A stretch of 64,000 nt of DNA from Deltaproteobacteria bacterium (GTDB lineage: Bacteria > Myxococcota_A > Polyangia > Fen-1088): the NCBI GenBank assembly GCA_033763315.1, contig JANRKS010000032.1, positions 591,589-655,588 on the forward strand. The letters are read 5' to 3'. The notes beneath the pieces were generated by a model that ran no database searches, was not told where the DNA came from, and saw only the letters and a list, made by a program, of their open reading frames with translations. The position numbers and the translations under genes are program-made. This document shows positions 32,881 to 51,153 of the stretch, in pieces (the first letter of the stretch is position 1; every line of letters starts with the position of its first letter).

Positions 32881-33920
32881 AGATCTTGTTAACGGGGGCG
32901 GCCGGATTCATCGGCTCACATCTGGCAGAACGCCTATGCGCCCGCGGCGATCAGGTGGTTGGCTTCGACAACTTCGATGCGTTTTACCCGCGCGCCAACA
33001 AAGAGCGAAATCTGACCAAGCTGCGCAAAGACAGTCGGTTTGCGTTGGTCGAAGGCGATCTGACGGTTCCCGGCGATCTTGATCGTGCCTTCACAGCCGC
33101 TGGCGGCCTGGTGGATGTTGTTGTGCACTTAGCCGCCTTGGCCGGCGTGCGGCCGTCGCTGAGCCAACCGGCGCGTTACGCCGAAGTCAACGTCACCGGC
33201 ACGGTCAACGTGTTCGAGGCGGCGCGCAAACGCGACGTAAAGAAGGTTGTGTTCGCTTCGTCGTCCTCGGTCTACGGGGCAGGCAGCGTGGTGCCGTTTA
33301 CGGAAACGGATGTTTGTGCCCAGCCGTTGTCGCCCTATGCGGCCACCAAGCGCGCTGGTGAATTGATGGCGTTCACAGAAAACCACGTGCATGGCACCGG
33401 CGTCACCTGCTTGCGCTTTTTCACCGTGTACGGCCCGCGCCAACGGCCCGATCTGGCGATTGCCAAGTTCACGCGCTTGATTGCGCTAGGGCAACAGATT
33501 GAGCTTTATGGCGATGGTCTCACCTCGCGCGATTACACGTGGGTGGACGACATCATTGATGGCGTGGTCGCGTCCATCGATCAGATGGCACGCGAACCTC
33601 AAGGACGCTTCCGCATCTACAATTTGGGTGGCTCCCAGACCACCACACTCAAAGGTTTGGTGGACATGATCGCCAAGGCGTTGAACAAAACGCCGCTGCT
33701 TGCTTGGAAGGCGGAGCAGCCGGGCGACATGAAACACACGCACGCCGATGTGGCGCTGGCAGGCCGGGAACTTGGTTACGCGCCCAAGGTGCATATCAGC
33801 GCGGGCATCGAACGGTTTGTTGCCTGGTGGTGCACTGAGCACGCGGGCGAAATCAAGGCCGAAAAGCAGCGGATCGGCACGCTGCCGTACGGCGCCGATG
33901 TGAAGCCAGACGTTATTTAG
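32877..33920 (+). CDS. NAD-dependent epimerase (UDP-glucuronate 4-epimerase-like)
   Basis: TGAAGFIG, HLAALAGVRPS, ASSSSVYG, YAATK, RFFTVYGPRQRPD. Confidence 0.92.
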   Translation: MKILLTGAAGFIGSHLAERLCARGDQVVGFDNFDAFYPRANKERNLTKLRKDSRFALVEGDLTVPGDLDRAFTAAGGLVDVVVHLAALAGVRPSLSQPARYAEVNVTGTVNVFEAARKRDVKKVVFASSSSVYGAGSVVPFTETDVCAQPLSPYAATKRAGELMAFTENHVHGTGVTCLRFFTVYGPRQRPDLAIAKFTRLIALGQQIELYGDGLTSRDYTWVDDIIDGVVASIDQMAREPQGRFRIYNLGGSQTTTLKGLVDMIAKALNKTPLLAWKAEQPGDMKHTHADVALAGRELGYAPKVHISAGIERFVAWWCTEHAGEIKAEKQRIGTLPYGADVKPDVI

Positions 33921-34926
33921 CGGCGCCCTTGCGCACGCGCACAAGCTTCGAGACGCGTCCGTGGGCGTTCCAATCCTCAACGTAGAGGTTGCCGTCTTTG
34001 TCCCACGCGGCGCCATGAGGCGCGGTGAATTGGCCATCTTTCCACTTATCGGGCGCCACATCGTACTTGCCACGTAGGTCGGGGTTTTCGTTGTCACCCA
34101 GCTGCGCCACAACCTTGAAGTCTTTGTCGAAGATGGAAACGCGGCCCTCGAGATCGACCACCAGCAATGAATCGCCTTGGGTCACAACCTTAGACGGTCG
34201 CCGCAAATCTTCGGTGACTGCAGAGACAAAGTCGCCGTTCAAGGTGAACAACTGCAAACGATGGTTCTGTCGATCGGCCACCACCACACGTGGCTCGGGG
34301 CCGCGCAGATCCAACCCCACGCCGTGCGGCTCTTTGAACGCGCCGCCTTCCCTGGCGCTGCCATTCCATGACTGCAACCACTGGCCTTTGGCATCGAATC
34401 GATGCAGCCAGAAGCGCCCATAGCCATCCACTACATAGATATCACCATTGGGCGCCACATCGAGAGCGGTGGGCAGATACTCTTCGGCATTCTTATACAT
34501 GCCGTTGGCGGTGGGGTAGGGGATGCTCATCAGCTCACGCCCATCCAACGAGAATTTGATCGCTGCGTGGCGTTTGAGATGCGCCACCCACAACACTTCC
34601 GTGTTGCCTTCCATGGCCAACCGCAAACCATGGCTGCCACCGCCCAAGTTATGGCCCCACACCTTTGAGATGCGGCCGTCCGGCTCGGCCACAACGATCG
34701 CATTGTTGGTGTCGGTGCTGAAGATCACATGGCCTTGACGATCAATCACAACGTCGCCATGCGTTTGACCCACCGTCATGCCGGCCGGCAATTTGAGCCA
34801 ATCCTTTTGCCAACGATACGTATGCCTGCCTTGGCCCACGATCAATGAGGCGTCTTTGGTTTGTGCTTGCGTGACAGCGGGCAAAGCAACAAGGGCGGCG
34901 AACGTGGCAAAGAGGCGCAGTTTCAT
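33913..34926 (-). CDS. Secreted NHL-repeat beta-propeller (peptidylglycine lyase-like)
   Basis: Signal peptide; PTALDVAPNGDIYVVDGYG, PHGVGLD, VADRQNHRLQ, PHGAAWDKDGNLYV. Confidence 0.82.
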   Translation of the reverse strand: MKLRLFATFAALVALPAVTQAQTKDASLIVGQGRHTYRWQKDWLKLPAGMTVGQTHGDVVIDRQGHVIFSTDTNNAIVVAEPDGRISKVWGHNLGGGSHGLRLAMEGNTEVLWVAHLKRHAAIKFSLDGRELMSIPYPTANGMYKNAEEYLPTALDVAPNGDIYVVDGYGRFWLHRFDAKGQWLQSWNGSAREGGAFKEPHGVGLDLRGPEPRVVVADRQNHRLQLFTLNGDFVSAVTEDLRRPSKVVTQGDSLLVVDLEGRVSIFDKDFKVVAQLGDNENPDLRGKYDVAPDKWKDGQFTAPHGAAWDKDGNLYVEDWNAHGRVSKLVRVRKGAAK

Positions 34927-35035: not shown

Positions 35036-35701
35036 TTAACGCAAGGATTCGGGTCGCCGTGGATACAGGCTTGGCGGGAAACGGCCTTCGATGCCGCCTG
35101 ATTGATATTCCAAGAAGTACAAGATTGCCCAAATCAGCTCTTTGGAAAGCTTGCCTTTCCACACGGGCATCTCTGATTCAACACCGTCTTTATCGGGACC
35201 ACCGTTGTAAATGATATTGAACACTTGCTGGTAAGGACGGCGTGCGCCAAAAAACAAACCTGTTCCCACGCCCCATCCGGGCGCCGGCGGGGGCATGGTG
35301 GACGCGTCTTCAATGTTGCGGCGGCCACCGTGGCACTCGTTGCACAACGACGTCCAAATGGCGACGGCCTCCGTGGATGTTTGGTTGTCCCAGAACACCC
35401 GTGGCGCTTGCCGATCCGAAATCGCTGCGTCGCGATCGCGGGCCTGCGACTCGCTGATGCCCAGTCCTGAAGATCGCAGCGGCCACCACGCCTCCGAAAT
35501 GTGGATGGGCAGCTCTGATTCCTCGTGAGCCACGGCCTTCTTTTTGCTTGGCTTGCGCGACAAAACGAACGCGCTGTCGCTGGCCGCCGCCTTAGACTCG
35601 CCTGGCTCGATCGTTCTGACGGGCGGGGTTTGTACCGGGCTGCAACTGATGGTGGTCAGTGCAGCCGTGAAGGCAAACAGGGATTGTTTTCGCATTTTCA
35701 T
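35036..35701 (-). CDS. Monoheme c-type cytochrome lipoprotein
   Basis: Lipobox TISC; CNECH; MPVWKGKLS (class I Met ligand motif). Confidence 0.82.
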   Translation of the reverse strand: MKMRKQSLFAFTAALTTISCSPVQTPPVRTIEPGESKAAASDSAFVLSRKPSKKKAVAHEESELPIHISEAWWPLRSSGLGISESQARDRDAAISDRQAPRVFWDNQTSTEAVAIWTSLCNECHGGRRNIEDASTMPPPAPGWGVGTGLFFGARRPYQQVFNIIYNGGPDKDGVESEMPVWKGKLSKELIWAILYFLEYQSGGIEGRFPPSLYPRRPESLR

Positions 35702-36675
35702 TCGTAGGATCCGTAGGCGCGGTTTTGTTTGTTTTTGTGCCCGCGGGCTTTGGGCTCAAGCTTCATGTCCACTTCAGCCACACCACCGCCATCCAGTTCA
35801 ACCCATTGCGTGGTCAAGCGCGATCCAGGTGACCACACCACGATCTTGCGTTTGCCGCTGGGAACGTTATTGATCTCGAATGTGCCATCGGCTTTGACCT
35901 TGGCGAAGTGGCGGTTCGGTACAACCAACATGTTTGCCGCCATCTGCGGGTGAATGTTGCAGAACACATCCACGGCGCCCGCTTCATTGAAGGTGTGTGC
36001 CTTGGGTTCGCCTGCGGCGTTATAGAGGCCAAGGTCGAACGAGTTGCCCGAACTCAGCGAAAACACGTTGTGGTAAACCTTATCGAGGTTCGGAAACACT
36101 ATCGTGGTTCCGCGTTGAACCACAGCCCAGGATGGAACGAACTGCTTGTCCCTTTGTTCCACAACCACCTTCTCGTTCTTCACCGGGGATGCAAACACGT
36201 TCTCAACGTAGGCGTAAGCGATGGGTTCGCCTTTAGGCACCTCCACCTTGCCGCGCACAACGCCAACGGCGGGCGCCGCTGCCATGGGCACCTCGCGTCG
36301 CCGCGCAGGCTGACCCTTGCCACCGGCTTTGCCTTCGCCTCGTCGAGGCGCTTCTTCGCGTGCGGCGGGTTCGGGCAAGCTTGGCGCCTCATCAGACGAC
36401 ACCGCTGGGGGCGGCGGCGCACCCTTAAGAGCACGCGCCGTGATGTCGGTGCTTTGCCGATGCAACTCAGCCAGATCCGTCAAGGCCGATTGCAGCGCCT
36501 GCACTTGTGAACGCAGTTGACGAATCTCGCGCTTCATTTCCTCGACGTTTGCTCCATCGCCAGGGGCATCCGCAGCCGACGCTGGGATTGATGCCGCTGA
36601 TGCGATGGCAAGCGCGATCGCGATTATCTTGATGTTCATGGTGTTCTTGATCCTCTCTCTCGTTTGATCGTTCAT
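35698..36675 (-). CDS. Exported coiled-coil + cupredoxin (type-1 Cu) + carboxypeptidase-regulatory-like protein
   Basis: Signal peptide; coiled coil; FPNLDKVYHNVFS and FCNIHPQM (His, Cys, His, Met); DGTFEINNVPSG. Confidence 0.82.
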   Translation of the reverse strand: MNDQTRERIKNTMNIKIIAIALAIASAASIPASAADAPGDGANVEEMKREIRQLRSQVQALQSALTDLAELHRQSTDITARALKGAPPPPAVSSDEAPSLPEPAAREEAPRRGEGKAGGKGQPARRREVPMAAAPAVGVVRGKVEVPKGEPIAYAYVENVFASPVKNEKVVVEQRDKQFVPSWAVVQRGTTIVFPNLDKVYHNVFSLSSGNSFDLGLYNAAGEPKAHTFNEAGAVDVFCNIHPQMAANMLVVPNRHFAKVKADGTFEINNVPSGKRKIVVWSPGSRLTTQWVELDGGGVAEVDMKLEPKARGHKNKQNRAYGSYE

Positions 36676-37616
36676 CACGCTGGCTCCTGGTTTGCCTTGC
36701 GCAAGCCCAGCCAAAGCACCACGGCGAACGTGATGCACATGAATACGGCGGGGGCCCATGTGGCGACTTTTAGAAGTCCAACGCGCTCAACATGTTGGTA
36801 GTGCGGCACGAGCCACACGGTTTTGCCTGCGCTTGCCATGTTGCTCACGGGCGAGGCACTGGCCAGATAGTCCCTGTCGCTGCGAACCAGCCGCTGCTCG
36901 CCCTCGGCAAGGTCTGACGCCAAACGGAAGGCGTTAAGGACAGAGGGGTTATCCGAAATCTTCGATACAACTTTATCGCCCACCACCACCGCACCCTGCG
37001 CGCCCAGTGCCTTTTCGATGCCAGTGAACGATGATTCACCAAGCTCAAAGCCCATCATGAATAGCGCTGCAACCTCATCGCCCGTGCGGATGGGTGCCAC
37101 ACCAAGCACGCGCACCTTGTTGGTGAACGTCCAGATATATGTGGAGGGGTTCTCCAGGGCGGCCTTGACCAGTGAAGATGAACCTAGATCCAGGTTGCGC
37201 ATTTCATCGGCCCCTACGACCGAGCGCACCTTGCCTCTGGTGTCGAGCACCGCCAGCACGCTTGCGTTCGATGATTTTTGCAAGTCCGTGAGCACGTCCG
37301 TGATGGTGGCCTCATCCAACTCAGGGGTGATGACGGTGGAACGGATGCGCGTGTCTTCCGCCAGCACGTTCACCTCTGACAGCAGATGCCGACGCTGTTG
37401 CTCAACAAACTGCGCCAACAGCGCGTTCGATTGCCTCAACGTGTCTGCATCCATTTGGTTGAGCAAAGACGTCACTTGGCGGTCCATCGCCCACGCCGCC
37501 AGACTGGTGAGCACCAATAGCGCCGTGACCGACGCGATGGCGGCCACTGGCTTGGGCCGCTCCACGCGTGTCACCGCTTGTGGCGATGAGTACATCTGAA
37601 ATTTGGCAACCGTCAT
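36675..37616 (-). CDS. Two-TM protein with Cache-like periplasmic domain and no cytoplasmic output domain
   Basis: TM, long helix LAEDTRIRS, AVLDTRGKV, VAPIR...MGFEL, second TM, then a ~8-aa tail. Confidence 0.6.
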   Translation of the reverse strand: MTVAKFQMYSSPQAVTRVERPKPVAAIASVTALLVLTSLAAWAMDRQVTSLLNQMDADTLRQSNALLAQFVEQQRRHLLSEVNVLAEDTRIRSTVITPELDEATITDVLTDLQKSSNASVLAVLDTRGKVRSVVGADEMRNLDLGSSSLVKAALENPSTYIWTFTNKVRVLGVAPIRTGDEVAALFMMGFELGESSFTGIEKALGAQGAVVVGDKVVSKISDNPSVLNAFRLASDLAEGEQRLVRSDRDYLASASPVSNMASAGKTVWLVPHYQHVERVGLLKVATWAPAVFMCITFAVVLWLGLRKANQEPA

Positions 37617-39472
37617 TCGGTCCTCCCGTGTTTGATAGATACGATTTGCTCGCCAGGCTTGATCTGGACTTGCTGTGAAAACACAACTTGATCGGCGCTC
37701 TCGACGCGCAAGCGATGTTCACCCACCGGCACCATGAAGGGCTGTGCGGCGCCCGGCATCTCAACGTCATCAACGTAGACCCGGGCCTCTGCAGGCAAAC
37801 CGCGAAGAACCACACGTCCGTCGGACTCAATCATCTTGAACACCTGCGGTGGCGATTTACCGGCCACCACGGAAAGGCGGCGATCTTCGGTCTTGTAACC
37901 GGCCTTATCGAGGTGAAGCGTGATCTGTCGACCAACCTTGAGGCCACGCAGAACTGCTGGCGTCGTTAGCCCGCTTGGTTCGCCATCCACAAAGATGATT
38001 GCACCCGAGGGATCGCTTTGCACTTCGATGGCGCCCATTGTGGTGGTCTGTTGCGTAGAACCCGCCCAACGAGGAGCTTCCTGTCGCAATGAAAACCCAA
38101 CGACGATGGCCACAACCGCCGCCGTGCCAGCGGCAATCATCCAAACCGGTGTGCGTGAACGTTTGGTGATGTGTGTGGCCCCGTGGCTTGCGGCACGGCT
38201 GACCTCTGTTGCTGGCAATGGTGTCTCCGCGGAGGCCCGCAACCCCGCGCGTGGAACCGCGGCGTCGGCTGCTCCCACTTGACCACCGCTGATTCGCTCA
38301 GTGGCAACATGGTCCGCGCTGGGGCGTTGTGTGGACCACAGAGCGCGCGGTTGTGCTGATAGGCTTCTGCCTGGAGCCGGCATGCCTGCGGCCGTCACCA
38401 GCCTTCGTACCTTTAGCTGCTCAAGCGCCGCTTCCACTTCTGTGCCTTGCGCGATCGCCTTTTTGAGGGCGGCGCGGTTTGGCTCAAACAGCGACTCCAT
38501 CCACAAGCCGATGCTTTTCGAGGTAGGCCGTTGTTGCCTTTGTACCAAGAACGCGTCGAGGGCTTCTGAGAGCTCGTGCGCGCTTTGAAAGCGCGCGCGT
38601 GGATCGCGGCTTAAGGCCCGCATCGTGATCGCGTCAAGATCGCGAGGCACATCGGGCCTCAAAGTGCTGGGGGCCGCGATTGTTTGCGACCGTACGGCGT
38701 CCATGGTTTGTGCGTCGTTTGGTTTCGCGAACAAGCTGCGGTTTGTGAGTGCCTCCCACAGCACGATGCCAAGGCTGAAGATGTCGGTGCGCCGATCGAC
38801 GTCGCCGCCGGTGATTTGCTCTGGCGCGCAATAGGCGTACTTGCCTTTGAACACCCCAGGGCTGGTTTGGGTGCTGCCTGGCGCGTTTTTCACAATGCCA
38901 AAGTCAAGCAGCTTGACCATCCCGTAATAGGTCACGAAGATGTTCGAAGGGTTGACGTCGCGGTGAACCAACCCTACGGGCTTGCCCGAGGGTTCACGGA
39001 TGTCGTGAGCGTAATGAAGGCCATTGGCGCTTTGCTGCGTGAGAGCCACAGCGATCTCCACCGTCATGGGTTCGCTGCGTTGACACGCTAAAAGAATCGC
39101 GGCCAGATCTTCGCCTGGCAAATACTCCATGCTGATGAAGTAAGAGCCATCGGCTTCACCCAACTCGTAAGTTGCGACGATGTTCGGGTGCTCTAAGCGC
39201 GCCGCCATACGTGCTTCATTGAGGAACATGTCTTCAAACTGCGGGCTATTGGCGAGGTGCGGAAGAATTCGCTTAACGGCCACGATCTTGGAGAAGCCCT
39301 GGATGCCTTGTTGTTCTGCAACGAACAACTGTCCCATGCCTCCTTGTCCAAGCAATCCGCGCAGTCGGTAGCGACCAAACGCTTCGCCTTGTCCTTGGCT
39401 CTTGAAAGCTTCCACTTCACAAAGTCGTTTCGGCCAATCGCGAGATGACTTAAGAGAAAAGATCACAAACAC
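37613..39472 (-). CDS. Membrane Ser/Thr protein kinase with PEGA domains
   Basis: GQGGMG, AVKRI, HRDVNPSN, DFG, YCAPE, DIFSLG; TM; SDPSGAIIFVDG. Start may be GTG ~39416. Confidence 0.93.
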   Translation of the reverse strand: MFVIFSLKSSRDWPKRLCEVEAFKSQGQGEAFGRYRLRGLLGQGGMGQLFVAEQQGIQGFSKIVAVKRILPHLANSPQFEDMFLNEARMAARLEHPNIVATYELGEADGSYFISMEYLPGEDLAAILLACQRSEPMTVEIAVALTQQSANGLHYAHDIREPSGKPVGLVHRDVNPSNIFVTYYGMVKLLDFGIVKNAPGSTQTSPGVFKGKYAYCAPEQITGGDVDRRTDIFSLGIVLWEALTNRSLFAKPNDAQTMDAVRSQTIAAPSTLRPDVPRDLDAITMRALSRDPRARFQSAHELSEALDAFLVQRQQRPTSKSIGLWMESLFEPNRAALKKAIAQGTEVEAALEQLKVRRLVTAAGMPAPGRSLSAQPRALWSTQRPSADHVATERISGGQVGAADAAVPRAGLRASAETPLPATEVSRAASHGATHITKRSRTPVWMIAAGTAAVVAIVVGFSLRQEAPRWAGSTQQTTTMGAIEVQSDPSGAIIFVDGEPSGLTTPAVLRGLKVGRQITLHLDKAGYKTEDRRLSVVAGKSPPQVFKMIESDGRVVLRGLPAEARVYVDDVEMPGAAQPFMVPVGEHRLRVESADQVVFSQQVQIKPGEQIVSIKHGRTE

Positions 39473-39728
39473 AGGTCACGCACTGACCTCGATGGCTCAA
39501 GTTTTAAAATTCGCTGACGAGACAACCCGACGTCGCGCTGAGGATCATCTGCAAGCGCGTTAAGTGCGTCGCTTCAATCAACAAAAAGCGACGCTTTTCT
39601 CGGGAATATTGCGTCTGATCGACGTACACGCGTCACCACCATGGTCTGCAATTCGTGCGTGCGACCATGAAGACAACACCATTTGGTAACGCTCGTGTCG
39701 TCGCACATGTCAAAGGTGCCGTCGGATT

Positions 39729-41390
39729 TTGAAAAACGTAACGACAAGGAAACTGCGCGATGTTGTCAAACGCAAACCAGGCGATGCGCGCGCATGGTTT
39801 GCCCTCGGACAAGCCGCGCTGGAGTGCGGCGAGATCGAAGATGGCAGGCACGCGCTTCGGCACGCTGGTGAAGTGTCGCTTTACGATCCTGATCTCTGTA
39901 TCTCTGCCGCAAATCTATTTGTTAAGGCAGGATTCTTAGCTGACGCGGAGGCCGTGCTGCGCCATGTGGTTGAACATCATCCTGTGGAGCTTGAAGGCCG
40001 CGCGGGCCTTGCGCGCCTGTTGTTGGAGACGGGGCGCGCCACCGAAGCCGCACGCGAGGGCGCTGTGGCGCTGCGCATTTCGCCCAACAGCATCGACCTA
40101 CGTCTGTTGGCCGCGGAAATCAACGAACGCACGGGTGCTCTTGCCGCGGCGGCAGATCATCTAGCCGTCGTGTTGACGGCGCAACCCGCGCACGTTGAAG
40201 GAAACCGCAGCCTCGCTCGGATCCTGATGAGCCTTGGCGATGTTCCTGGTTCGATCAGATGTTTGCGTCGCGTGGTTGGCGCCACGCGTGGCGAGGATTT
40301 CGATTTGTTGACGCTGCTGGGACAAGCGCTGTCAAGCAACGGCCAGCATGCAGAAGCGGTGCAGATGTTGAACGACATCGCACACAAGATGCCGAACTTC
40401 AGCCCTGCCTTCGCAAATCTAGGCATGGCGCTTGTGGCTGCCACGCGCCTTGAAGAAGCCGTGGAAGTGCTTCTGCGCGCTCTTGAACTTGATCCTCGCT
40501 CCGCGCAAGCGCATTGCGGCTTGGGAATTGCGTACCAAAAACTTGGTAAGTGGGAGGAGGCCGTCGAAGCCTTTCGGGCCACTGAGCAGCTTGCGCCTGA
40601 CAACGCTGTGGGATCGCTGAACCTCGGCTTGGCGCTTGATGCTGTGGGCGACAAAGACGGAGCGCGGCGCGCTTTGCTGCGTGCCGCCGCCGTGGCGCCC
40701 GAAGATGAAGAGATCAGCCGCGCGTTGGAAGAGTTCTTGTTGAAGACGTCGCCGTCAGTCTCACCGGCCACACAAGCAAGTGCATCGCCCGCACCGGCGC
40801 CGCCCGCGTCACTGTTGTCGACCAGCGAGATCCAGGCCTTGGCGCCGCAGTCGCTGCACTTTGAGGCCTCTATCAAAGGTGATCTAAAGAGTTTTCAGCT
40901 GTTCGACGTGCTTGAGTTCCTGCGGCTGCAAAACAAGACAGGATCGCTTGTTATCTCGGCCCCAAGTGGCGCTGGCATCGTTCGCATGGTTGGCGGCGCG
41001 GTGGCTTGGGCGTCCGCGCCAGGGCTGCGACGGTTGGGCGAAACGCTGGTCGACGCTGGCGTGATCAGCAAGGGCAATCTGGAATTTGCCCTGGGGCGAC
41101 AGCGCGAGGCCGAAGAGCGCGGACCACATCAAGGAGCACACAGCTTCGATCCACTGGGGCTTGTGCTGCTGCGAGAGCGCCTCGTCACACGCGAGCTGCT
41201 CTCGAAATTTGTCTTCAAGCGAATCATGGACGCGCTGGCGCAGATGGTCTCGTGGCCCGCGGGCGCCTTTTCATTTCACGACGCTGATTCAAGTGAATCG
41301 CCACCCATCAGCTTCAATTTGCAGGAAGTGATGCTGGATCTCATGCGTGTCATCGACGAGCAGAACAACCCCAGCGCGCCCACATCGTGA
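39729..41390 (+). CDS. TPR-repeat protein with C-terminal DUF4388 domain
   Basis: Multiple TPRs (AFANLGMAL, AHCGLGIAY); KGDLKSFQLFDVLEFL...KTGSL...LGETLV...WPAGAFSF. Confidence 0.82.
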   Translation: MKNVTTRKLRDVVKRKPGDARAWFALGQAALECGEIEDGRHALRHAGEVSLYDPDLCISAANLFVKAGFLADAEAVLRHVVEHHPVELEGRAGLARLLLETGRATEAAREGAVALRISPNSIDLRLLAAEINERTGALAAAADHLAVVLTAQPAHVEGNRSLARILMSLGDVPGSIRCLRRVVGATRGEDFDLLTLLGQALSSNGQHAEAVQMLNDIAHKMPNFSPAFANLGMALVAATRLEEAVEVLLRALELDPRSAQAHCGLGIAYQKLGKWEEAVEAFRATEQLAPDNAVGSLNLGLALDAVGDKDGARRALLRAAAVAPEDEEISRALEEFLLKTSPSVSPATQASASPAPAPPASLLSTSEIQALAPQSLHFEASIKGDLKSFQLFDVLEFLRLQNKTGSLVISAPSGAGIVRMVGGAVAWASAPGLRRLGETLVDAGVISKGNLEFALGRQREAEERGPHQGAHSFDPLGLVLLRERLVTRELLSKFVFKRIMDALAQMVSWPAGAFSFHDADSSESPPISFNLQEVMLDLMRVIDEQNNPSAPTS

Positions 41391-41494
41391 GGCCGTGAGC
41401 GCAGCATCAACCCACTACGGAACCTCGCTACATGTTTTCACACACAAAGACCAAAAGTCCGTTCGGTATCAACATCCACACACAGGGTCGAATC

Positions 41495-42859
41495 ATGAGA
41501 AACATTTGTTCTTGGCTCGTTAGTCTTTCGCTGGGCTTGGTTTGGATTGCCAACGCGCAGGCGCAAGAAGGGCCAAACCCCGACGCGCCAAGCCTGCCGG
41601 AGCCGGCCGACGAAGAGGCCGTTGAGGGCGATCGCTTCTCGCAGCTTGAGGAACAAATCGCGGAGCTTAAGGAGAGGGTTCGGCAAGGTGAGGCGGAACG
41701 GCAGGTCGCTTCGCCACTTACCATCAACGGCTACGTTGACTTCGGCTTCTTCGCACCCATGGGCAACAACGGCGTGGGCTATACGCGTGATGTGGCGAAT
41801 CGGCAGTTCCCCCAATACCGTCCCTTTGCGTGGACTTTCTTGGGCGACATCCTCGGCAGCACGATCAACTCGCGTGGTGAAGCGGCCGACTTGGGCGACG
41901 CGCCTGGCGTCGATCGCTTTGATAGCGTTAATTCAGACGGCGCTGCGGGCTTCATTGCGAACGAACTCAATATGCGCATTGGATATGCGCTGTCGGAGAA
42001 CGCCATACTGCGCACAAGCGTGAACTTCATCCCGCGCAGTGGGAACCAGGACTTTAGCCTCGGGGATTTTGTGGAAGCGGACATTGCTGAGCTGGAGTAC
42101 GTCCTGACGGAGGATGGCAACACGTCTCTGTTCGTCGGTAAGATGCTTCCTGTTTTCGGGATTGAGTATAAAGATCGAAAGTCTGATCAGCGATTTGGTG
42201 TGACCCCGTCCCTCATATCGCGTTACACGACGGGACCACAGCTCGGCCTGAAGCTGCGCAGTAAGCTGCTGAACGACTGGGTCATCTTGGCGGGGTCCGT
42301 CACAAACAACTCATCCACCACCGAGCAGTTCGACTTTTACCGCGAAATTGATCGCAATAACTCGAAAACCCTCAATGGCCGTGTGGCGTTGAGCGCGCCA
42401 CTTCTGCACAACCGGCTGGAGCTTGGATTTTCAGGTGAGTGGGGCGCGCAAGATAAGGACCGCAGCGGCGGACGTGAGATCTGGTTCTTGGGCGTCGACC
42501 TGCAGTACTTGGGCACCAGCGTGTGGCTTAAAGCGCAGGCCATGCGCGGAGGCGCGCCAGGCACCGCAGATGATCGTGTATGGGGCCTGAAGTTGCGTAA
42601 CTCTGGTTATGTTGAGGTTGATTGGATGTTCTTGCCGCGCGTGGGTACCATACTGCGCGCCGAGCTTCGTGACGCGTTTGTCACGTTGGGAACAGAGCGC
42701 GCCTACTTGACGAAGCAGATGCGCTTTACAGGTGGTGCTCGCGTTGTGCTCAATGAGCATATGTTCGTGAAAGCGGAGTACTACTACAACCGCGAGTATG
42801 GTGGTGTAGAGCAGTTCAGGAACAACATGTTCACGAGTTCGTTGGTGCTCGCGTATTAG
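41495..42859 (+). CDS. Putative outer-membrane porin / beta-barrel
   Basis: Signal peptide; short coiled coil; INGYVDFGFF; alternating strands; C-terminal FTSSLVLAY beta-signal. Confidence 0.75.
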   Translation: MRNICSWLVSLSLGLVWIANAQAQEGPNPDAPSLPEPADEEAVEGDRFSQLEEQIAELKERVRQGEAERQVASPLTINGYVDFGFFAPMGNNGVGYTRDVANRQFPQYRPFAWTFLGDILGSTINSRGEAADLGDAPGVDRFDSVNSDGAAGFIANELNMRIGYALSENAILRTSVNFIPRSGNQDFSLGDFVEADIAELEYVLTEDGNTSLFVGKMLPVFGIEYKDRKSDQRFGVTPSLISRYTTGPQLGLKLRSKLLNDWVILAGSVTNNSSTTEQFDFYREIDRNNSKTLNGRVALSAPLLHNRLELGFSGEWGAQDKDRSGGREIWFLGVDLQYLGTSVWLKAQAMRGGAPGTADDRVWGLKLRNSGYVEVDWMFLPRVGTILRAELRDAFVTLGTERAYLTKQMRFTGGARVVLNEHMFVKAEYYYNREYGGVEQFRNNMFTSSLVLAY

Positions 42860-42878
42860 CACGCTTGTCAGATTTTCT

Positions 42879-42910
42879 GAAAAAACGCCGGGAATACTCG
42901 GCGCTTTTTC
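42879..42910. terminator. Possible bidirectional terminator after the porin
   Basis: AAAAAA-CGCCG...CGGCG-CTTTTT. Confidence 0.55.
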
Positions 42911-43241
42911 GTTCTTGTGTTGGTTCTGCGTGTGTTTGGTTGATCCCGCGGTGCGCGCGTGTGCCGCGGTTGTTGAGATCTGTGCGGCCATCTTACGTGC
43001 GTCGTACATGTCTGAGGTTTTATTGGGTCATTTTTTGTCTGGGCCTGGATTTATGCGTTTTTCGCGGGAAAACTTGAAATCCGTGAGCCGGGCGAATAGC
43101 GATCGCAGTTTTGATCTGCGATCCAAGATCGAAACGGTCACTTTGCTTTTGCAGCTTTTTTGTTCTGTCACTCAATGGCTCTGTGCAATCCGACGACACT
43201 TGCGGGGCACCGAGAATTGGTCACGGTGAATGGAGGAGATC

Positions 43242-44600
43242 ATGTTTTACGAACGACGCTCGCTACGAAGTACGTTGCCTGCCCTTGGATTGGTTGCGAT
43301 TGCGACCGCAGGCGCTTGCGGGCAAGAAGACGGCAAGAATGGGTTAAGCGCGGAAGAATGGGCAATGGTGCAAGAGATTGCACCGTACTCGAAGCCTATG
43401 CCTGCGAATCCCTTTAACCACCGCGATCAGGATGTGGCGGTGGCAAAGCTTGGACAGATGCTGTTCTTTGAGACGGATGTGTCAGAGGCTGAGCCGCTGA
43501 CCGTGGATAGCCCCTTCGGTAAGAAGGGTGACAAGGCCAAGATCGGCTGCGTGACTTGCCACGATCCTGCACGCTACTTCGCGGATGCACGTCCAGGGTC
43601 CTTGTCTTTGGGCCGCAATGGATACCTCAGGCGCAACACGCCCACGATGTTGAACGCCGGCTATTACAACTGGGCCGGGTGGACAGGCCGTCATGATTCT
43701 TTGGTCATGCACGGTGCCGGCGTATGGAGCACGTCTGCCTCTGCCTTGTCTTACGCGCATTACGTGTATCGCAAGTATCGCGATGAATACAACGCGGTTT
43801 TTCCTGCGACGCCGCTCGACCCCGCGCTGGATCCGCTGGCGCCGGACGCCGCTCGCTTTCCGATGTCCGGTGCGCCGAAGGCCAATGCCATGGCGGCGGA
43901 TGGGCCTTGGGAAAAGATGGCGCCTGAAGATCAAAAGATCATTCAACAGATCCAATACAACCTCGGTCGCATTTGGGACACATACCCTCGCAAACTCACA
44001 ACTCCGAACTCACCCTTTGAGCGCTTCACAAAGGGCGATGAGAAGGCTCTCACCCCCGAAGCCAAGCGCGGTCTGCGTCTGTTCATCGGAAAAGCCGCTT
44101 GTTCGGATTGCCACAGTGGACCCACGTTAAGCGACAATCAGTTCCATAACATCGGTGTGGCAACGAACATGCTTGCCACGGCAGCAGACGTGGGGCGGTT
44201 CGCAGATCTTGCGGCTTCGTCGACCAATGTGTTTGGCGGCGCAGGCCAGTTCAGCGACGATCCTGCGGCGGCCGCTGCCAAGAATGCAACCGTCGTTCAA
44301 ATGGATATGACGATGATGGGCGCCTTCCGCACGCCTGGTTTGCTCAGCATTGAGAAGACGGGACCATATTTTCACTCTGGGGAGTTTCCCACGCTGGAAT
44401 CGGTGGTGCGCTTCTACAACGTGGGCGGCGGTGACAAGGCTGGTGATGGCGGACCCGGCACTTACGCGGGAACCAAAGACGTTCGCCTGCGTCCGCTTGG
44501 GTTAACGGAGCCTGAGATCGCCGATCTCGTTGCCTTCTTGAAGAGCCTCACGGGAGATCTTCCTCCGCTTGAGTGGACGCAAGACACCGCGAAGCATTGA
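43242..44600 (+). CDS. Di-heme bCcP/MauG superfamily lipoprotein, atypical
   Basis: RBS GGAGGAG; lipobox AGAC; LGQMLFF; CVTCH; RRNTPT; WTGR; CSDCH; FRTPGL; GPYFHSG; LVAFLKSLTG. Confidence 0.9.
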   Translation: MFYERRSLRSTLPALGLVAIATAGACGQEDGKNGLSAEEWAMVQEIAPYSKPMPANPFNHRDQDVAVAKLGQMLFFETDVSEAEPLTVDSPFGKKGDKAKIGCVTCHDPARYFADARPGSLSLGRNGYLRRNTPTMLNAGYYNWAGWTGRHDSLVMHGAGVWSTSASALSYAHYVYRKYRDEYNAVFPATPLDPALDPLAPDAARFPMSGAPKANAMAADGPWEKMAPEDQKIIQQIQYNLGRIWDTYPRKLTTPNSPFERFTKGDEKALTPEAKRGLRLFIGKAACSDCHSGPTLSDNQFHNIGVATNMLATAADVGRFADLAASSTNVFGGAGQFSDDPAAAAAKNATVVQMDMTMMGAFRTPGLLSIEKTGPYFHSGEFPTLESVVRFYNVGGGDKAGDGGPGTYAGTKDVRLRPLGLTEPEIADLVAFLKSLTGDLPPLEWTQDTAKH

Positions 44601-44707
44601 ACGGTTGCAATGGATGCACCGACCCGTGCATCAAGAAGAAGGGGCGCTGTTCGGCGCCACTTCTTCTCTTTCTAGGTGGGTCATGTCCCAAACAGCAAGG
44701 AGATCAA

Positions 44708-46111
44708 ATGTACAAGCCATCGTGGGTTCTCTCATGCGGCGTCTTTTTGGTGGGCTCTGGTTGCGGTGCCCTCGATCCAAACGCCGGCGATCAAGAGGAA
44801 CCAAAAGCACAGTTGCAAAACTATGCTTTGAGGCAGAACGAAACGTTCAATCTGGCAGGCGCGGCAGAAACAGCGCACACATCCGGTGTGATCGACACAT
44901 CCAATCCCTTCTTCTTGGTCAGGGGCACCAACCCTCGCACCTGCGAGACGTGCCATGCAGCAAGCCAAGGGTGGACCATCTCTGCGATGGGCGCTGCCAC
45001 GAAGTTCTACTTAAGCGATGGCCTCGATCCCCTGTTCAATCTGGTAGACACCGGCAGCCGACCTGACGCCGATGTTTCGACGTCCCAGGCACGTCGTGAT
45101 ACGTTCGATTCAACGATCGACCGAGCCGTCATTCGCTTCACACGCACGATCAACCCAGCCGCCGAGTTCGCGGTGGCGGCGGTGAGCGATCCAAGTGGGT
45201 TTTCCGATACCACCCGCGTGTCGGCCTTCCGCCGTCCTTCGCCAACCGCCAATGAATCCAAGGTGCCCAACACCGGCTGGGCAGGTGGCCCTGCGACCGC
45301 GGGTGTTCCGGCGGCACTTGCGGCGACAGCGGTTGGGGCGACGCGGCTGCATGGGCAGCGGGTTGAGCCGTTGTCTCCTGAGGATGCGGCCGCCGAACGC
45401 GATTTCATGTTCGGCGTAATCTTCGCACAATCATACGATTGGCTGGCAGGTCGCCTTGATGCCGACGGCGCGCGCGGTGGTGCCCAGAACTTGATGGCGC
45501 AACCATTTTACGAAGGCATCAACGACATCACGGGTGGCGATCCGCAAGGGCATCCATTTAACCGAAAGGTCTTCAACATCTTCGATGCCTGGGAAAATGA
45601 ACAACCCAGCCCGACCGTTAGCCCTTGGCAGGCCGCCGCACGCGCCTCGATTTATCGTGGGCAGGAGCTGTTCAATTCTTACGAGTTCACTGTGTCCGAC
45701 GTCAAAGGTCTAAACGACGTTCTTGGGCAACCCGTAGCAGCGGTCACATGCAGCACGTGTCACAACACACCGAACGTCGGCGGCCACTCGGTGTTCCGCC
45801 AGTTTGACATCGGCAGTGCGAACGAAGAAAACTGTGGCGCGGCTTTGCCTATCCTCACGCTGCAAAACAAAACCACCGGAGAAACGCGGAAGGTTTGCGA
45901 CATGGGCCGCGCGACAGGCAGTGGCTCGTGGAATGACATTGGTAAATTCCGCGCTCCACCTTTGCGTGGCCTCGCTGCCCGCGCTCCCTACTTTCACGAC
46001 GGCCAAATGGGCACCATCTGGGACGTGGTGCAATATTATGACAGGCACTTCTCCATGGGGTTGTCGACGCAACAGAAGCTCGACTTAACCGCTTTTCTGC
46101 GCGCCCTTTAG
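44708..46111 (+). CDS. Second di-heme c-type cytochrome lipoprotein with bCcP-like C-terminus
   Basis: RBS AAGGAG; lipobox GSGC; CETCH; CSTCH; GKFRAPPLRGLAARAPYFHDG; DLTAFLRAL. Confidence 0.85.
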   Translation: MYKPSWVLSCGVFLVGSGCGALDPNAGDQEEPKAQLQNYALRQNETFNLAGAAETAHTSGVIDTSNPFFLVRGTNPRTCETCHAASQGWTISAMGAATKFYLSDGLDPLFNLVDTGSRPDADVSTSQARRDTFDSTIDRAVIRFTRTINPAAEFAVAAVSDPSGFSDTTRVSAFRRPSPTANESKVPNTGWAGGPATAGVPAALAATAVGATRLHGQRVEPLSPEDAAAERDFMFGVIFAQSYDWLAGRLDADGARGGAQNLMAQPFYEGINDITGGDPQGHPFNRKVFNIFDAWENEQPSPTVSPWQAAARASIYRGQELFNSYEFTVSDVKGLNDVLGQPVAAVTCSTCHNTPNVGGHSVFRQFDIGSANEENCGAALPILTLQNKTTGETRKVCDMGRATGSGSWNDIGKFRAPPLRGLAARAPYFHDGQMGTIWDVVQYYDRHFSMGLSTQQKLDLTAFLRAL

Positions 46112-48621: not shown

Positions 48622-48769
48622 TTCTGCCCCTAACAGTTGACGATCGTCCAAGCGCGATGAGTCAGATACGGAACTTCGTTTGCGGCACGACGTTCCATCG
48701 GGCGGCGCCCCGAAGCAAATTCAAAAAGAAGCTTCCCATCGCGGTTCTGCTTTCGCACAATGCGATGAC

Positions 48770-50545: not shown

Positions 50546-51153
50546 GTTCGAAATCGATTCGCCCGCTTCGTCGCGATCTAGGCGCCGTGGCCTTGGTGGC
50601 GGCTGGCCTTCCCCTGGTGCGGATTCGTAAGCTCCACGCAGCGGAAGCTCCCACCGCTGGTGCCAGAGCAGGTTTTTTCTCACCACACCAATTGTTAACG
50701 GTTGAACACCTGGCGGAGCAGATCATTCCGCAGGATGAACATTCGCCCGGTGCGCGTGAAGCCGAAGCCGCGCAAACGATTGATCTCTATTTGTTGGATC
50801 TAAACCCACGCAACTCCGATCACGTCAAAAGACGTGCTTTGTGGAAGCGAGGACTCGTCCACATTGATAAAGATGCCAACGCGCGCTTTGCCAAGCCGTT
50901 TGTAAAGCTGAAAGCAGACGATCAGTATGCGTTGCTAAGCACGTGGGCTGACACGCCAACCACTGATCCCTTGCGCTCGGCTTTCTTCGCGGAACTCAAA
51001 GCGCGCGTGGCTTGGGCCTACTACACATCTGCCGTGGGAATTCACCAAGACATGGGATATCTGGGAAACACGTACTCCTCCGACTTTGAGGGTGAGGCAT
51101 TGGGCCCACCCCTTGGGATCTTGTTCAAACAGATGAAGGACGAAGCGCCCTGA
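50542..51153 (+). CDS. Gluconate-2-dehydrogenase subunit 3-like Tat protein
   Basis: LRRDL Tat-like signal; QIIPQDEHSPGA; YYTSAVG. Confidence 0.82.
   Translation: MSSKSIRPLRRDLGAVALVAAGLPLVRIRKLHAAEAPTAGARAGFFSPHQLLTVEHLAEQIIPQDEHSPGAREAEAAQTIDLYLLDLNPRNSDHVKRRALWKRGLVHIDKDANARFAKPFVKLKADDQYALLSTWADTPTTDPLRSAFFAELKARVAWAYYTSAVGIHQDMGYLGNTYSSDFEGEALGPPLGILFKQMKDEAP

Follow-up and report, generated by a model that had tools for sequence, protein, structure and literature searches.

We find that eight genes encoding a Ser/Thr kinase, a membrane sensor, a blue-copper protein (cupredoxin), a cytochrome c, a TPR-DUF4388 protein, an outer-membrane beta-barrel and two dihaem proteins make up a genuine unit whose conservation is seen repeatedly among uncultured soil myxobacteria. 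We tentatively read the locus, at somewhat less than even chance, as an elaborated version of an envelope-sensing cassette that is conserved, and present in several copies, in an uncultured Polyangia (Myxococcota) lineage. All eight open reading frames were located by ORF calls and translations in the window, the 64,000-nucleotide stretch of DNA analyzed here, much as a preliminary description had listed them, and they recur together in other genomes. A literature search returned no description of this cassette, which appears to be undescribed.

Eight genes in two divergent transcription units

The exported cupredoxin (35,698–36,678, minus strand) begins with a signal peptide, an Lpp-like coiled coil and a Pro/Ala linker, followed by the type-1 cupredoxin domain and a C-terminal part made of a CarboxypepD_reg Ig-like domain and a conserved tail, H-x-NK-x-G-x-x-YGSY. 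Pfam matches are Copper-bind (22.8 bits, cut-off 21.2) and CarboxypepD_reg (31.5 bits, slightly below the cut-off of 32.3), and no NCBIfam model matched, MbnP included. The type-1 Cu ligand set proposed earlier is borne out, in that the HNVFS...CNIHPQM motif is found in the translation, H203, C240, H243 and M246 are invariant in a 16-sequence alignment, as are W282, Y322 and Y325, and the His, Cys, His and Met ligands are each at least 90% conserved among 73 cupredoxin sequences. The AF2 model (mean pLDDT 79.8) matches amicyanin, plastocyanin and pseudoazurin in Foldseek (TMt 0.5–0.77), and the profile finds amicyanin in the PDB (E 3.5e-5); model confidence is low in the tail, where the final two blocks average pLDDT 65 and 51. 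Type-1 sites with His/Cys/His/Met ligands serve electron transfer, not metal transfer or chaperoning.

The stand-alone, two-TM periplasmic sensor (36,675–37,616, minus strand) is almost devoid of a cytoplasmic part, and the earlier label "Cache-like" is now sharpened to a predicted dCache (tandem PDC) fold: its AF2 model (pLDDT 85.7) has DctB, KinD, Tlp3, LuxQ and vpHK1S-Z8 as best Foldseek matches. The N-terminal periplasmic domain of kinases from paralogous (type-B) cassettes is a homologue of the sensor, as hhalign comparison with 30 of these N-termini shows (probability 97.4%, E 1.1e-11). The window's own Hanks-type kinase (37,613–39,472, minus strand) consists of an N-terminal cytoplasmic kinase domain, one TM helix and periplasmic PEGA domain(s), a layout found in 11 of 11 tested kinases that adjoin a stand-alone sensor; the Myxococcota kinase is either fused to a dCache domain or, as in the window, split off as kinase-TM-PEGA. 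Pfam matches to Pkinase (132 bits) and PEGA (40 bits), together with HRD, DFG and VAVK motifs readable in the translation, support the earlier proposal of coupling to Ser/Thr phosphorylation rather than to a histidine kinase.

The minus-strand unit ends with a monohaem, class-I-like cytochrome c, probably a lipoprotein (35,036–35,701), with a CNECH motif and a Cytochrome_CBB3 match of 23.4 bits, under the cut-off of 27. Overlaps had been claimed at all three junctions of this unit. The kinase/sensor and cupredoxin/cytochrome c junctions are true ATGA overlaps; the third depends on an ambiguous cupredoxin start (36,678, 36,675 or 36,639), with an overlap only if GTG 36,678 or ATG 36,675 is used and a gap of ~35 nt if the gene starts 13 codons later, as in database and Atlas models. 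The sensor and cupredoxin genes are operon-tight whichever start is used. The divergent intergenic region (39,473–39,728) holds one weak sigma-70-like site (39,483–39,510, plus strand), and promoter-like sites there are not above chance (1 vs 3.8 ± 1.9 in shuffles).

On the plus strand, a cytoplasmic TPR-DUF4388 protein (39,729–41,390; DUF4388, 73 bits, plus TPR families) precedes the outer-membrane beta-barrel (41,432–42,859), identified as an OprO/P- or BBP2-like porin from structure and feature matches to Porin_O_P, BBP2 and Porin_4 clusters of the ESM Atlas (TM by query 0.59–0.80). The barrel has a short N-terminal coiled coil, no match in Pfam and no sequence match in the PDB; its translation contains no haem motif (CXXCH), and its mature part no Cys. 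A terminator-like hairpin follows (42,886–42,903, plus strand) and had been taken to separate the dihaem genes from the rest; the hairpin exists, but its class is not above chance in this region (19 matches vs 16.1 ± 4.1 in shuffles). In type-A (window-type) genome loci with dihaem 1 after the barrel, the spacing is roughly 20–480 nt by HSP coordinates.

Dihaem 1 (43,230–44,600, plus strand) is a lipoprotein with a CCP_MauG match of 68 bits and the haem motifs CVTCH and CSDCH. Searched over its full length against PDB sequences, it comes closest to canonical bacterial CCPs (E 1e-18 to 1e-17), its C-terminal half aligns best to MbnH (6e1c, E 7.7e-12), and the leading NCBIfam models are TTQ_mauG (115.5 bits vs a cut-off of 444) and, second, MbnH (112 bits vs a cut-off of 363). 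Tyr396 lies opposite MauG chain position 294 in ungapped HMMER stretches; among 72 homologues, 70 have two CXXCH motifs and 69 a Tyr aligned with the MauG axial ligand Tyr294. From these alignments, dihaem 1 is predicted to belong to the MauG/MbnH/BthA branch of the CCP_MauG superfamily and to have a Tyr-ligated six-coordinate haem; the excerpted text of PMC6405878 assigns MauG Tyr294 and BthA Tyr463 a role in bis-Fe(IV) formation. Dihaem 2 (44,573–46,111, plus strand) is a divergent lipoprotein with a RoxA-like cytochrome c module (RoxA-like_Cyt-c, 28 bits; CETCH and CSTCH) and weak matches to MbnH (E 1.1e-6) and bacterial CCPs; its start is probably 44,708 rather than 44,573, since the signal peptide and lipobox begin there.

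Conservation of the cassette and of its core pair

Two independent anchor sets, barrel and sensor, show the genes together, and this co-occurrence, on which the preliminary description had staked its reading, is far above chance. Among 80 barrel-anchored loci (~55 Myxococcota assemblies, counted by hand), the cupredoxin is present in 73 and absent from none (7 run into a contig end), the MauG-like dihaem 1 is present in 72, absent from 1 and undecidable in 7, and the kinase is present in 62, absent from none and undecidable in 18. Sensor-anchored metagenome loci (n = 56) have the cupredoxin immediately downstream in 47 and absent from none (9 contig ends), with the kinase upstream in 39, absent from none and undecidable in 17. 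Many of these loci come from related genomes and are therefore not independent. The core four genes also recur in paralogous cassettes: all three barrel homologues of the window's own genome adjoin a cupredoxin homologue, with a kinase within 8 kb, and relatives carry several full-length copies per genome, each copy with its own kinase. For the four core genes, matrices of pairwise identity correlate with one another (r 0.56–0.83, 53 loci), with nearest-neighbor agreement in 25–32 of the 53 loci. Gene order varies: of the 73 cupredoxin-bearing loci, 55 are type B, 16 type A and 2 neither, and 5 of the type-B loci follow the variant order STK, sensor, dihaem, barrel, cupredoxin; the linkage has thus outlasted rearrangement. 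The barrel family (mean column identity 52% over 16 homologues) turned up in just 4 of 200 further genomes drawn evenly from the phylum (E ≤ 1e-30), which makes it lineage-specific and not part of a universal core.

Both dihaem genes, the cytochrome c and the TPR-DUF4388 gene recur in window-like loci. The cytochrome c is an accessory gene of the type-A cassette: a homologue lies behind the cupredoxin in 14 of the 16 genome loci of this type and in 33 of 47 metagenome loci (of the rest, 13 end at a contig edge and one, L123, lacks it). The TPR-DUF4388 gene, likewise accessory, immediately precedes the barrel in 13 of the 16 type-A genome loci and, by our own tally of the metagenome locus table, in 24 of the 56 sensor-anchored loci, wherever the contig extends that far. 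Whether the dihaem genes belong had been doubted, and the counts favor membership: dihaem 1 adjoins the barrel in 72 of 73 decidable loci, and dihaem 2, an accessory of type-A cassettes, has homologues in 11 of the 16 genome loci of this type. These mostly follow the cytochrome c gene instead of dihaem 1, and 19 metagenome loci likewise have dihaem 2 behind the cytochrome c. Not every cassette has a haem partner: in one from the window's own genome its place is taken by a 416-aa lipoprotein with no haem motif, and neither locus L024 nor a Comamonas plasmid has a haem gene at the corresponding position.

The invariant core, judged from sequence comparison, is a secreted type-1 cupredoxin encoded beside a membrane-anchored dCache sensor, a pair that Myxococcota accompany with a Ser/Thr kinase, an OprO/P-like porin and a MauG-type dihaem lipoprotein. 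L024, from another family of the class, has a stand-alone sensor followed by the cupredoxin, with no barrel, dihaem or kinase gene. On plasmids of Burkholderia, Caballeronia, Comamonas and Novosphingobium, a cupredoxin homologue is followed after 4–10 nt by a dCache_3-HAMP-GGDEF-EAL gene, and 5 of 6 annotated proteobacterial loci examined have a Cache or EAL protein directly after the cupredoxin homologue. The window sensor is homologous to the dCache_3 domain of these proteins (hhalign against dCache_3-GGDEF-EAL N-termini, probability 97.7%, E 1.4e-12). The Burkholderia cupredoxin homologue also has the Cu ligands, and it lacks both the C-terminal tail and a MauG-like neighbor.

Competing explanations

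The explanation we consider unlikely, yet the strongest of the rivals, is a periplasmic peroxide-reduction chain: cupredoxin and cytochrome c, as ordinary donors, would feed electrons to a pair of dihaem peroxidases detoxifying H2O2, with kinase and sensor serving just to control the operon and the porin acting as a general channel. Bacterial CCPs, the closest full-length PDB matches of dihaem 1, are known to take their electrons from cupredoxins and c-type cytochromes. The Tyr-ligated relative BthA turns over H2O2 when given a donor (excerpted text of PMC6405878). Against such a chain, a MauG-type Tyr replaces the CCP Met-ligand region in the 69 homologues noted above, genomes hold several copies with a kinase each, the cupredoxin–dCache pair persists without a peroxidase gene or with a globin instead, and a dedicated porin and tethering coiled coil per copy are needless for a detoxification operon. 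MauG-type enzymes usually modify a protein substrate and are not simple peroxidases, so dihaem 1 could serve maturation rather than signaling, a point that counts against our preferred sensing explanation. The enzyme would then post-translationally oxidize conserved aromatics in the cupredoxin (W282 or the terminal YGSY tail) or in the porin, the modified protein alone being the functional sensor or ligand. This proposal, which we regard as distinctly improbable, fits the protein substrates of the MauG/MbnH branch (excerpted text of PMC6405878), the conserved axial Tyr, the invariant W282, Y322 and Y325, the low-confidence tail and the joint absence of tail and MauG-like neighbor in Burkholderia; it is drawn from sequence, and one cassette of the window's own genome keeps the cupredoxin without a dihaem gene.

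A touch less probable again is copper acquisition or handling of the MbnT-MbnP-MbnH kind, with a porin that imports copper, a dihaem protein that matures a copper-binding periplasmic protein and a kinase that reports copper. The adjacency of a copper-binding protein and an outer-membrane channel and the MbnH matches of dihaem 1 speak for it, but the MbnH score is far under its cut-off, the cupredoxin matches no MbnP model and has an electron-transfer rather than a chaperone site, the window locus and the scanned paralogue ORFs of its genome contain no CopA, CopC, CopD or TonB-type gene, and the proteobacterial cassette has a globin, not an MbnH-like enzyme. The preliminary description had allowed for either electron transfer or redox, metal or NO sensing; of these, sensing is favored over a trans-outer-membrane conduit. 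Porin, cupredoxin and c-type cytochromes do resemble building blocks of porin-cytochrome or Cyc2-rusticyanin pathways of electron conduction or metal oxidation, but we hold such a pathway to be very improbable here: the locus has no multihaem cytochrome and no link to a terminal oxidase or reductase. The evidence favors a sensing device because the barrel has neither CXXCH nor, once mature, Cys, every copy has a kinase, and the cupredoxin–dCache core has an alternative, c-di-GMP output (GGDEF-EAL) on the proteobacterial plasmids. That the genes are mere neighbors through shared descent, with no common function, we find barely credible; the compared genomes are mostly relatives and synteny could be inherited, but linkage persists at 44–63% barrel identity over the ~55 assemblies, through three or more gene orders and after duplication into paralogues, and on proteobacterial plasmids the core pair is found again, joined to another output domain.

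A proposed model for envelope sensing and its relation to known systems

The most likely role of the cassette is to monitor oxidants or the redox state of the cell envelope by means of the blue-copper protein and the membrane sensor. The cupredoxin would act as a periplasmic redox co-sensor, together with a haem protein and the outer-membrane porin. Through the porin, an oxidant or a redox-active compound would enter and be turned over by the putative Tyr-ligated dihaem enzyme, which would be reduced by the Cu(I) cupredoxin; window-type cassettes may have extra routes of electron entry or exit in their monohaem cytochrome c and dihaem 2. The dCache domain would then read the redox state or conformation of the cupredoxin through a putative contact and switch the kinase. 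Downstream, the cytoplasmic TPR-DUF4388 protein may be a partner of the kinase, as its target or as a scaffold.

The proposed reading of a cupredoxin by a dCache sensor resembles that of LuxP by LuxQ. Compared with the proteobacterial plasmid cassettes, which combine the core pair with a periplasmic truncated haemoglobin that carries a signal peptide and a DUF3034 putative outer-membrane barrel, the Myxococcota cassettes have a dihaem protein and an OprO/P-like porin, and the predicted output is Ser/Thr phosphorylation in the window cassette versus HAMP-GGDEF-EAL (c-di-GMP) on the plasmids.

Gene content and conservation of the locus

We find by ORF calling and translation that all eight genes attributed to 35036-46111 in the preliminary description are present. 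The minus strand carries genes for a Ser/Thr kinase with a C-terminal transmembrane (TM) helix and a PEGA domain (37613-39472; Pkinase 132 bits, PEGA 40 bits), a 313-residue protein with two TM helices, hereafter the sensor (36675-37616), an exported protein with cupredoxin and CarboxypepD_reg domains, hereafter the cupredoxin (35698-36678), and a monohaem cytochrome c with a CNECH motif and a Pfam score below cut-off (35036-35701). On the plus strand lie genes for a TPR-DUF4388 protein (39729-41390), a 475-residue barrel without a Pfam match (41432-42859), a dihaem lipoprotein of the CCP_MauG family (dihaem 1; 43230-44600) and a divergent second dihaem protein (dihaem 2; 44573-46111, with a more likely start at 44708). 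The proposed coupling to a kinase is supported: the Pkinase domain is of the Hanks type, and the motifs VAVKR, HRDVNPSN and DFG, with the catalytic Lys, HRD and DFG elements, are readable in the translation. Stop/start overlaps had been described at all three minus-strand junctions; two are confirmed as ATGA, and the third, between sensor and cupredoxin, depends on the start codon, as the genes overlap only if the cupredoxin begins at an upstream GTG or ATG, and the database and Atlas gene models place its start 13 codons further downstream. The hairpin 3′ of the barrel gene likewise exists, but terminator-like matches in the region are no more frequent than chance predicts (19 versus 16.1 ± 4.1 in shuffles). 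For 35036-44600, a sequencing-run search listed a single DNA match, in a metagenome of freshwater sediment (share 0.25), and no RNA run.

Two features flank these genes. Directly downstream of the cytochrome c gene, beyond a strong hairpin (35023-34999), is a gene for a secreted NHL-repeat protein (33913-34926, minus strand) with weak similarity to ScyF-type NHL proteins; no such gene was seen at the matching position of the compared related loci. At 48680-51153 (plus strand), an ORF for a GMC-family-like flavoprotein (621 residues) precedes a small Tat-signal-like subunit ORF, the two reading, in translation, like a gluconate 2-dehydrogenase-type pair. A gene for a GMC oxidoreductase likewise adjoins the sensor-cupredoxin pair of locus L024, from another family of the window's class, where a stand-alone sensor-like gene is followed by a cupredoxin gene with no adjoining barrel, dihaem or kinase gene.

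A cupredoxin match is found in 37 of the 41 genomes searched (40 related genomes and the window's own), many with several full-length copies, and tblastn comparison of 20 cupredoxin flanks resolves two kinds of locus. Type A, seen in two flanks, has the window's order, cytochrome c←cupredoxin←sensor←kinase and, divergently, (TPR-DUF4388)→barrel→dihaem 1; most others are type B, co-directional as dihaem 1→barrel→cupredoxin→kinase, with the dCache (tandem PDC) sensor domain fused to the kinase. The window's own genome carries one type B copy on contig C40, and all three of its barrel homologues lie beside a cupredoxin homologue with a kinase less than 8 kb away. We then anchored on the barrel, for which a 16-sequence profile retrieves 80 loci in genome contigs of about 55 assemblies (a hand count of accession prefixes; the titles read are Myxococcota or delta-proteobacterial MAGs). 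The cupredoxin is present in 73 of these and dihaem 1 in 72, each with seven loci cut by a contig end, and the kinase in 62, with 18 cut; absence despite adequate flanks occurs once for dihaem 1 and never for the other two. By architecture, 55 loci are type B, 16 type A and two other, and the remaining seven, without a visible cupredoxin, are all contig ends. Five type B loci (L059, L062, L071, L076 and L097) have the variant order STK→sensor→dihaem→barrel→cupredoxin. Among the 16 type A loci, cytochrome c is found in 14, TPR-DUF4388 in 13 and dihaem 2 in 11, the last mostly 3′ of cytochrome c rather than of dihaem 1.

A reciprocal, sensor-anchored scan of metagenome contigs (9-row sensor alignment; 56 loci) gives a concordant picture. 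The sensor is followed by the cupredoxin in 47 loci, with nine cut by a contig end and none lacking it, and preceded by the kinase in 39, with 17 undecidable and none lacking it; of the 47, 33 continue from the cupredoxin to cytochrome c (13 at a contig edge, and one, L123, without it), dihaem 2 follows cytochrome c in 19, and all eight genes occur together on five long contigs (L125, L130, L139, L145 and L171). Conserved co-occurrence, whose absence was to count against a functional unit, is thus found from both anchors, and the dihaem genes, the least certain members in the preliminary description, belong to the unit. Over 53 loci, the barrel, cupredoxin, dihaem 1 and kinase have correlated matrices of pairwise identity (r 0.56-0.83), and nearest neighbours agree for 25-32 of the 53, which indicates that the cassettes are inherited and duplicated as units; the linkage has outlasted three gene orders and paralogous duplication, though the genomes are related and the loci non-independent.

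Several loci depart from the common pattern. A third cassette of the window's genome (L020:9917-15625; contig C19, about 296.5-302.2 kb) reads sensor-kinase→416-residue lipoprotein→divergent barrel (26% identity)→cupredoxin, and the lipoprotein, which has no Pfam match and no haem motif, is unrelated to the MauG-like dihaem protein whose position it occupies. The orthologous type A kinases at L031:6768-8651 and L032:6483-8297 score 59 and 40 bits against Pkinase with partial coverage (others, 99-128 bits) and may be degenerate or pseudokinases. In most type A loci, a second Ser/Thr kinase gene lies 3′ of dihaem 2 on the cupredoxin strand, and in several metagenome loci the dihaem 2 match is ~3.1 kb long, suggestive of a larger protein or of copies in tandem (the two observations together draw on L096, L098, L101, L104, L105, L125, L129-L131, L135, L139, L142, L145, L146, L153-L155, L159 and L171); the window has neither because dihaem 2 has moved behind dihaem 1.

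A predicted blue-copper protein and its dCache partner

The cupredoxin comprises a signal peptide, a ~43-residue helix, a disordered Pro/Ala linker, a cupredoxin domain, an Ig-like domain and a conserved tail; several homologues carry the JGI label 'Lpp'. It passes the Copper-bind (PF00127) threshold by a small margin (22.8 versus 21.2 bits), and the complete type-1 ligand set recognised initially, an upstream His followed by Cys-x2-His-x2-Met, holds up in alignment: H203, C240, H243 and M246 do not vary among 16 sequences, and in a set of 73 each reaches at least 90% conservation. An AlphaFold2 model has a block of pLDDT 90-97 over roughly residues 141-310, which Foldseek matches to amicyanin, plastocyanin and pseudoazurin (E about 1e-5, TMt 0.5-0.77), and profile searches find amicyanin (E 3.5e-5) and the cupredoxin module of a nitrite reductase (E 1.3e-8); no NCBIfam model, MbnP included, matches at E ≤ 0.01. 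Threshold, ligand set and modelled Greek-key β-sandwich together predict a type-1 blue-copper protein. Also invariant or nearly so are FDLG, W282 and the tail H-x-NK-x-G-x-x-Y-G-S-Y-(E/D) (35698-35740, minus strand), the last nearly invariant in Myxococcota and absent from a Burkholderia homologue; the low model confidence of this conserved tail makes it a candidate docking or modification site.

The sensor, described earlier as "Cache-like", is modelled with a dCache fold: its AlphaFold2 model (mean pLDDT 85.7) has a long stalk helix, two PAS-like α/β modules and a second TM helix, with helices at 23-86 and 276-310, and Foldseek matches it to the tandem-PDC sensors DctB, KinD, Tlp3 and LuxQ (E 1e-10 to 1e-7) and to vpHK1S-Z8. 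No Pfam Cache model matches the window sensor at E ≤ 0.01, and a plain hmmsearch with the sensor profile finds only 3 of 78 kinase ORFs, so that profile-profile comparison is needed; this aligns the profile with the N-terminal periplasmic region of 30 type B kinases (probability 97.4%, E 1.1e-11), from which we infer that the sensor was split from the kinase in type A. Kinase layouts agree with such a split, being kinase-TM-PEGA in 11 of 11 tested kinases beside a stand-alone sensor and having the kinase domain C-terminal in two of two tested type B kinases. Complex prediction for sensor residues 45-280 and cupredoxin residues 138-326, with a 16-row alignment per partner, scores 0.19 against a mark of 0.32 and counts neither way.

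The pair recurs outside the Myxococcota. A tblastn search of plasmids with the C-terminal half of the cupredoxin returns 24 records, mostly from Caballeronia, Burkholderia, Paraburkholderia, Comamonas and Novosphingobium, where RefSeq names the homologues 'methylamine utilization protein'; the Burkholderia protein keeps all four ligands, His, Cys, His and Met. Seven loci were opened, six of them annotated. In five of these six the next gene, 4-10 nt downstream or overlapping, encodes a Cache or EAL protein, so that with the 47 of 56 sensor-anchored loci, and none non-adjacent, a LuxPQ-like adjacency of soluble protein and sensor is observed in both settings. Both plasmid transducers scanned have the domain order dCache_3-HAMP-GGDEF-EAL, and hhalign aligns the window sensor profile with the dCache_3-bearing N-termini of the plasmid EAL proteins at 97.7% probability (E 1.4e-12); hmmsearch finds the match too, at E 7e-9 to 3e-5 against a database of three sequences. 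Just upstream of the cupredoxin, four of the six annotated loci encode DUF3034 and a group-1 truncated haemoglobin with a signal peptide, giving the order barrel, haem protein, cupredoxin, transducer (L111:5583-9796, L114:3535-7854, L115:3515-5907 and L113:5258-9755); DUF3034, with a signal peptide and an outer-membrane-barrel-like C-terminus, is a putative outer-membrane barrel. A truncated haemoglobin in the periplasm is in itself out of the ordinary. In L112:5835-9789, from a plasmid of Comamonas aquatica, DUF4394 replaces DUF3034 and the globin upstream of the cupredoxin and an EAL protein, and a weaker Phyllobacterium homologue stands in a cbb3/SCO context with no sensor gene. Leads from the Atlas suggest further members of the cupredoxin plus Ig-like family in Acidobacteriota, Planctomycetota and Nitrospinota. 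No functional description of the DUF3034, globin, cupredoxin and GGDEF-EAL cassette was found in the literature searched, and for dCache_3 in P. aeruginosa PMC8694187 yielded a domain table only.

The MauG-like enzyme and a putative outer-membrane barrel

Dihaem 1 belongs to the CCP_MauG family (PF03150; 68.4 bits versus a cut-off of 25.6), and two CXXCH motifs are found in 70 of 72 homologues. Its best full-length matches are canonical CCPs, the alignments breaking at the CCP Met-ligand region; its C-terminal half aligns best to MbnH (6e1c, E 7.7e-12). In ungapped HMMER stretches, Tyr396 stands opposite MauG chain position 294, and the residues aligned with it in MbnH and BthA are the Tyr of the IYS and FYN motifs, respectively; a Tyr is aligned with the MauG axial ligand in 69 of 72 homologues. 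These alignments predict an axial Tyr at a six-coordinate haem in place of the CCP Met. Dihaem 1 misses the equivalog cut-offs of both MauG (TIGR03791; 115.5 versus 443.85 bits) and MbnH (TIGR04039; 112.3 versus 362.85 bits).

The barrel has no Pfam or NCBIfam match and, with the 16-sequence profile, no PDB sequence match. Its Atlas model (pTM 0.72) resembles clusters of Porin_O_P, BBP2 and Porin_4 (TM by query 0.59-0.80, both sides predicted). It contains no CXXCH motif and no Cys in the mature part, and its N-terminus forms a short coiled coil like that of the cupredoxin, which suggests that the two may be tethered. The family occurs in only four of 200 other genomes sampled across the phylum (E ≤ 1e-30) and is thus lineage-restricted.

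A proposed redox co-sensor, its rivals and known systems

By comparison across these loci, the invariant core is a predicted type-1 cupredoxin with a dCache transducer whose output, Ser/Thr kinase or GGDEF-EAL, is interchangeable; its usual companions are a haem protein of the periplasm and a putative outer-membrane barrel, in families that differ between phyla. We favour, tentatively and at a little under an even chance, a reading in which the cupredoxin serves the dCache domain as a co-sensor, as LuxP does for LuxQ. The haem partner would react with an oxidant, be it H2O2, O2, NO or some redox-active compound admitted by the porin, and so set the redox state of the cupredoxin copper, on which cytochrome c and dihaem 2 would have a further influence in type A; the dCache domain would read that state and control the kinase. 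Against this reading, the haem partner is not universal, as the haem-less lipoprotein of the L020 cassette shows.

The same genes could encode a plain peroxide-reducing chain under kinase control, to which the full-length similarity of dihaem 1 to CCPs would correspond and the predicted Tyr in place of the CCP Met would not; we regard this as unlikely, though the foremost of the alternatives. Maturation, in which the MauG-type enzyme would modify the cupredoxin tail or the porin, could draw on the conserved YGSY tail and is a distinctly unlikely account. MbnPH-like copper handling has the MbnH-like C-terminal half of dihaem 1 in its favour, and we judge it improbable; membership of the MbnP-MbnH system proper was rejected because there is no MbnP-family partner and the MbnH score falls far below cut-off. 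An outer-membrane electron conduit, which co-encoded barrel, cupredoxin and cytochrome c might suggest, is very unlikely, and conduits of the porin-cytochrome or Cyc2 type were rejected because the barrel is haem-less and its partners carry at most two haems. Hardest to credit is a chance neighbourhood, rejected because linkage persists through rearrangement and duplication. The earlier redox interpretation thus survives in part: we favour functional linkage and a sensory role of a redox type, and disfavour electron transfer across the outer membrane, where the barrel is haem-less and no partner is multihaem.

The co-sensor reading can be extended to a joint proposal that we consider doubtful: that the cassette represents an unrecognised class of envelope signalling device with a blue-copper protein as primary sensor. 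Matching coiled coils would tether the cupredoxin beneath an outer-membrane porin dedicated to it; oxidation of the cupredoxin, or modification of its YGSY tail, would fall to a bis-Fe(IV) enzyme of the MauG type, and the resulting state would pass to the dCache transducer; the core would be common to Myxococcota and Pseudomonadota, with eukaryote-like kinases or c-di-GMP enzymes as outputs; and each paralogous cassette of a genome would signal an extracellular oxidant or redox-active compound of its own. The usual picture of an extracytoplasmic Cache sensor is of a protein that binds small ligands or solute-binding proteins, and an accessory periplasmic protein acting with a dCache transducer is a known signalling principle; a blue-copper protein in the accessory role, accompanied by a MauG-type enzyme and by a porin dedicated to it, is new relative to the open-access literature searched, in which we found neither the cassette described, nor a function for DUF3034, nor any cupredoxin-Cache sensor pairing. 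If true, a copper electron-transfer protein as obligate dCache partner would add a route for reading periplasmic or extracellular redox state, peroxide, O2 or NO, and would give a role to the widespread, unstudied 'methylamine utilization protein' (cupredoxin plus Ig-like) family, to many orphan MauG-like dihaem enzymes and to some of the many Ser/Thr kinases of myxobacteria. Cultivable bacteria carry the homologous proteobacterial cassette, which makes the idea directly testable.

Among known systems, LuxP-LuxQ is alike in that a soluble periplasmic protein, presumed here to be a co-sensor, is encoded beside a tandem-PDC sensor, and the LuxQ periplasmic domain with LuxP (1zhh) ranks 37th among Foldseek matches of the window sensor; the accessory here is a type-1 cupredoxin with an Ig-like domain rather than a solute-binding protein, and the window cassette adds a haem enzyme and an outer-membrane porin. 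The MauG/amicyanin (mau) and MbnH-MbnP systems share with dihaem 1 the CCP_MauG fold family, two c-haems and an axial Tyr (predicted for dihaem 1), and amicyanin is among the nearest solved relatives of the cupredoxin; however, dihaem 1 lies far below their NCBIfam cut-offs (115.5 against 444, and 112 against 363), no methylamine dehydrogenase or MbnP gene is present, and the window cassette has a kinase and a porin coupled to it. BthA of Burkholderia has a Tyr/His-ligated six-coordinate haem, its FYN motif being aligned in the 6nx0 alignment, but its sequence similarity to dihaem 1 is weak (E 1.5e-8); PMC6405878 describes both peroxidase activity, given a donor, and bis-Fe(IV) chemistry, calls the physiological substrate unknown, and places bthA beside a putative phosphatase gene rather than a cupredoxin, porin or kinase gene.

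The uncharacterised proteobacterial cassette likewise combines a cupredoxin and a dCache sensor, both homologous to those of the window and the former bearing the same four ligands, with a haem protein of the periplasm and a putative outer-membrane barrel; it differs in that its output is c-di-GMP turnover, not Ser/Thr phosphorylation, its haem protein a globin rather than a MauG-like enzyme, its barrel of another family, and its cupredoxin without the coiled coil and the YGSY tail. YfiBNR-type tripartite signalling combines an outer-membrane component, a redox-sensitive periplasmic accessory protein and an inner-membrane signalling enzyme, a likeness of layout only between unrelated protein families. 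Cyc2-rusticyanin-Cyc1 and porin-cytochrome conduits encode an outer-membrane barrel, a cupredoxin and c-type cytochromes together; unlike these, the window locus has a haem-less barrel and no multihaem cytochrome or oxidase genes, and the unit is sensor-coupled and multi-copy.
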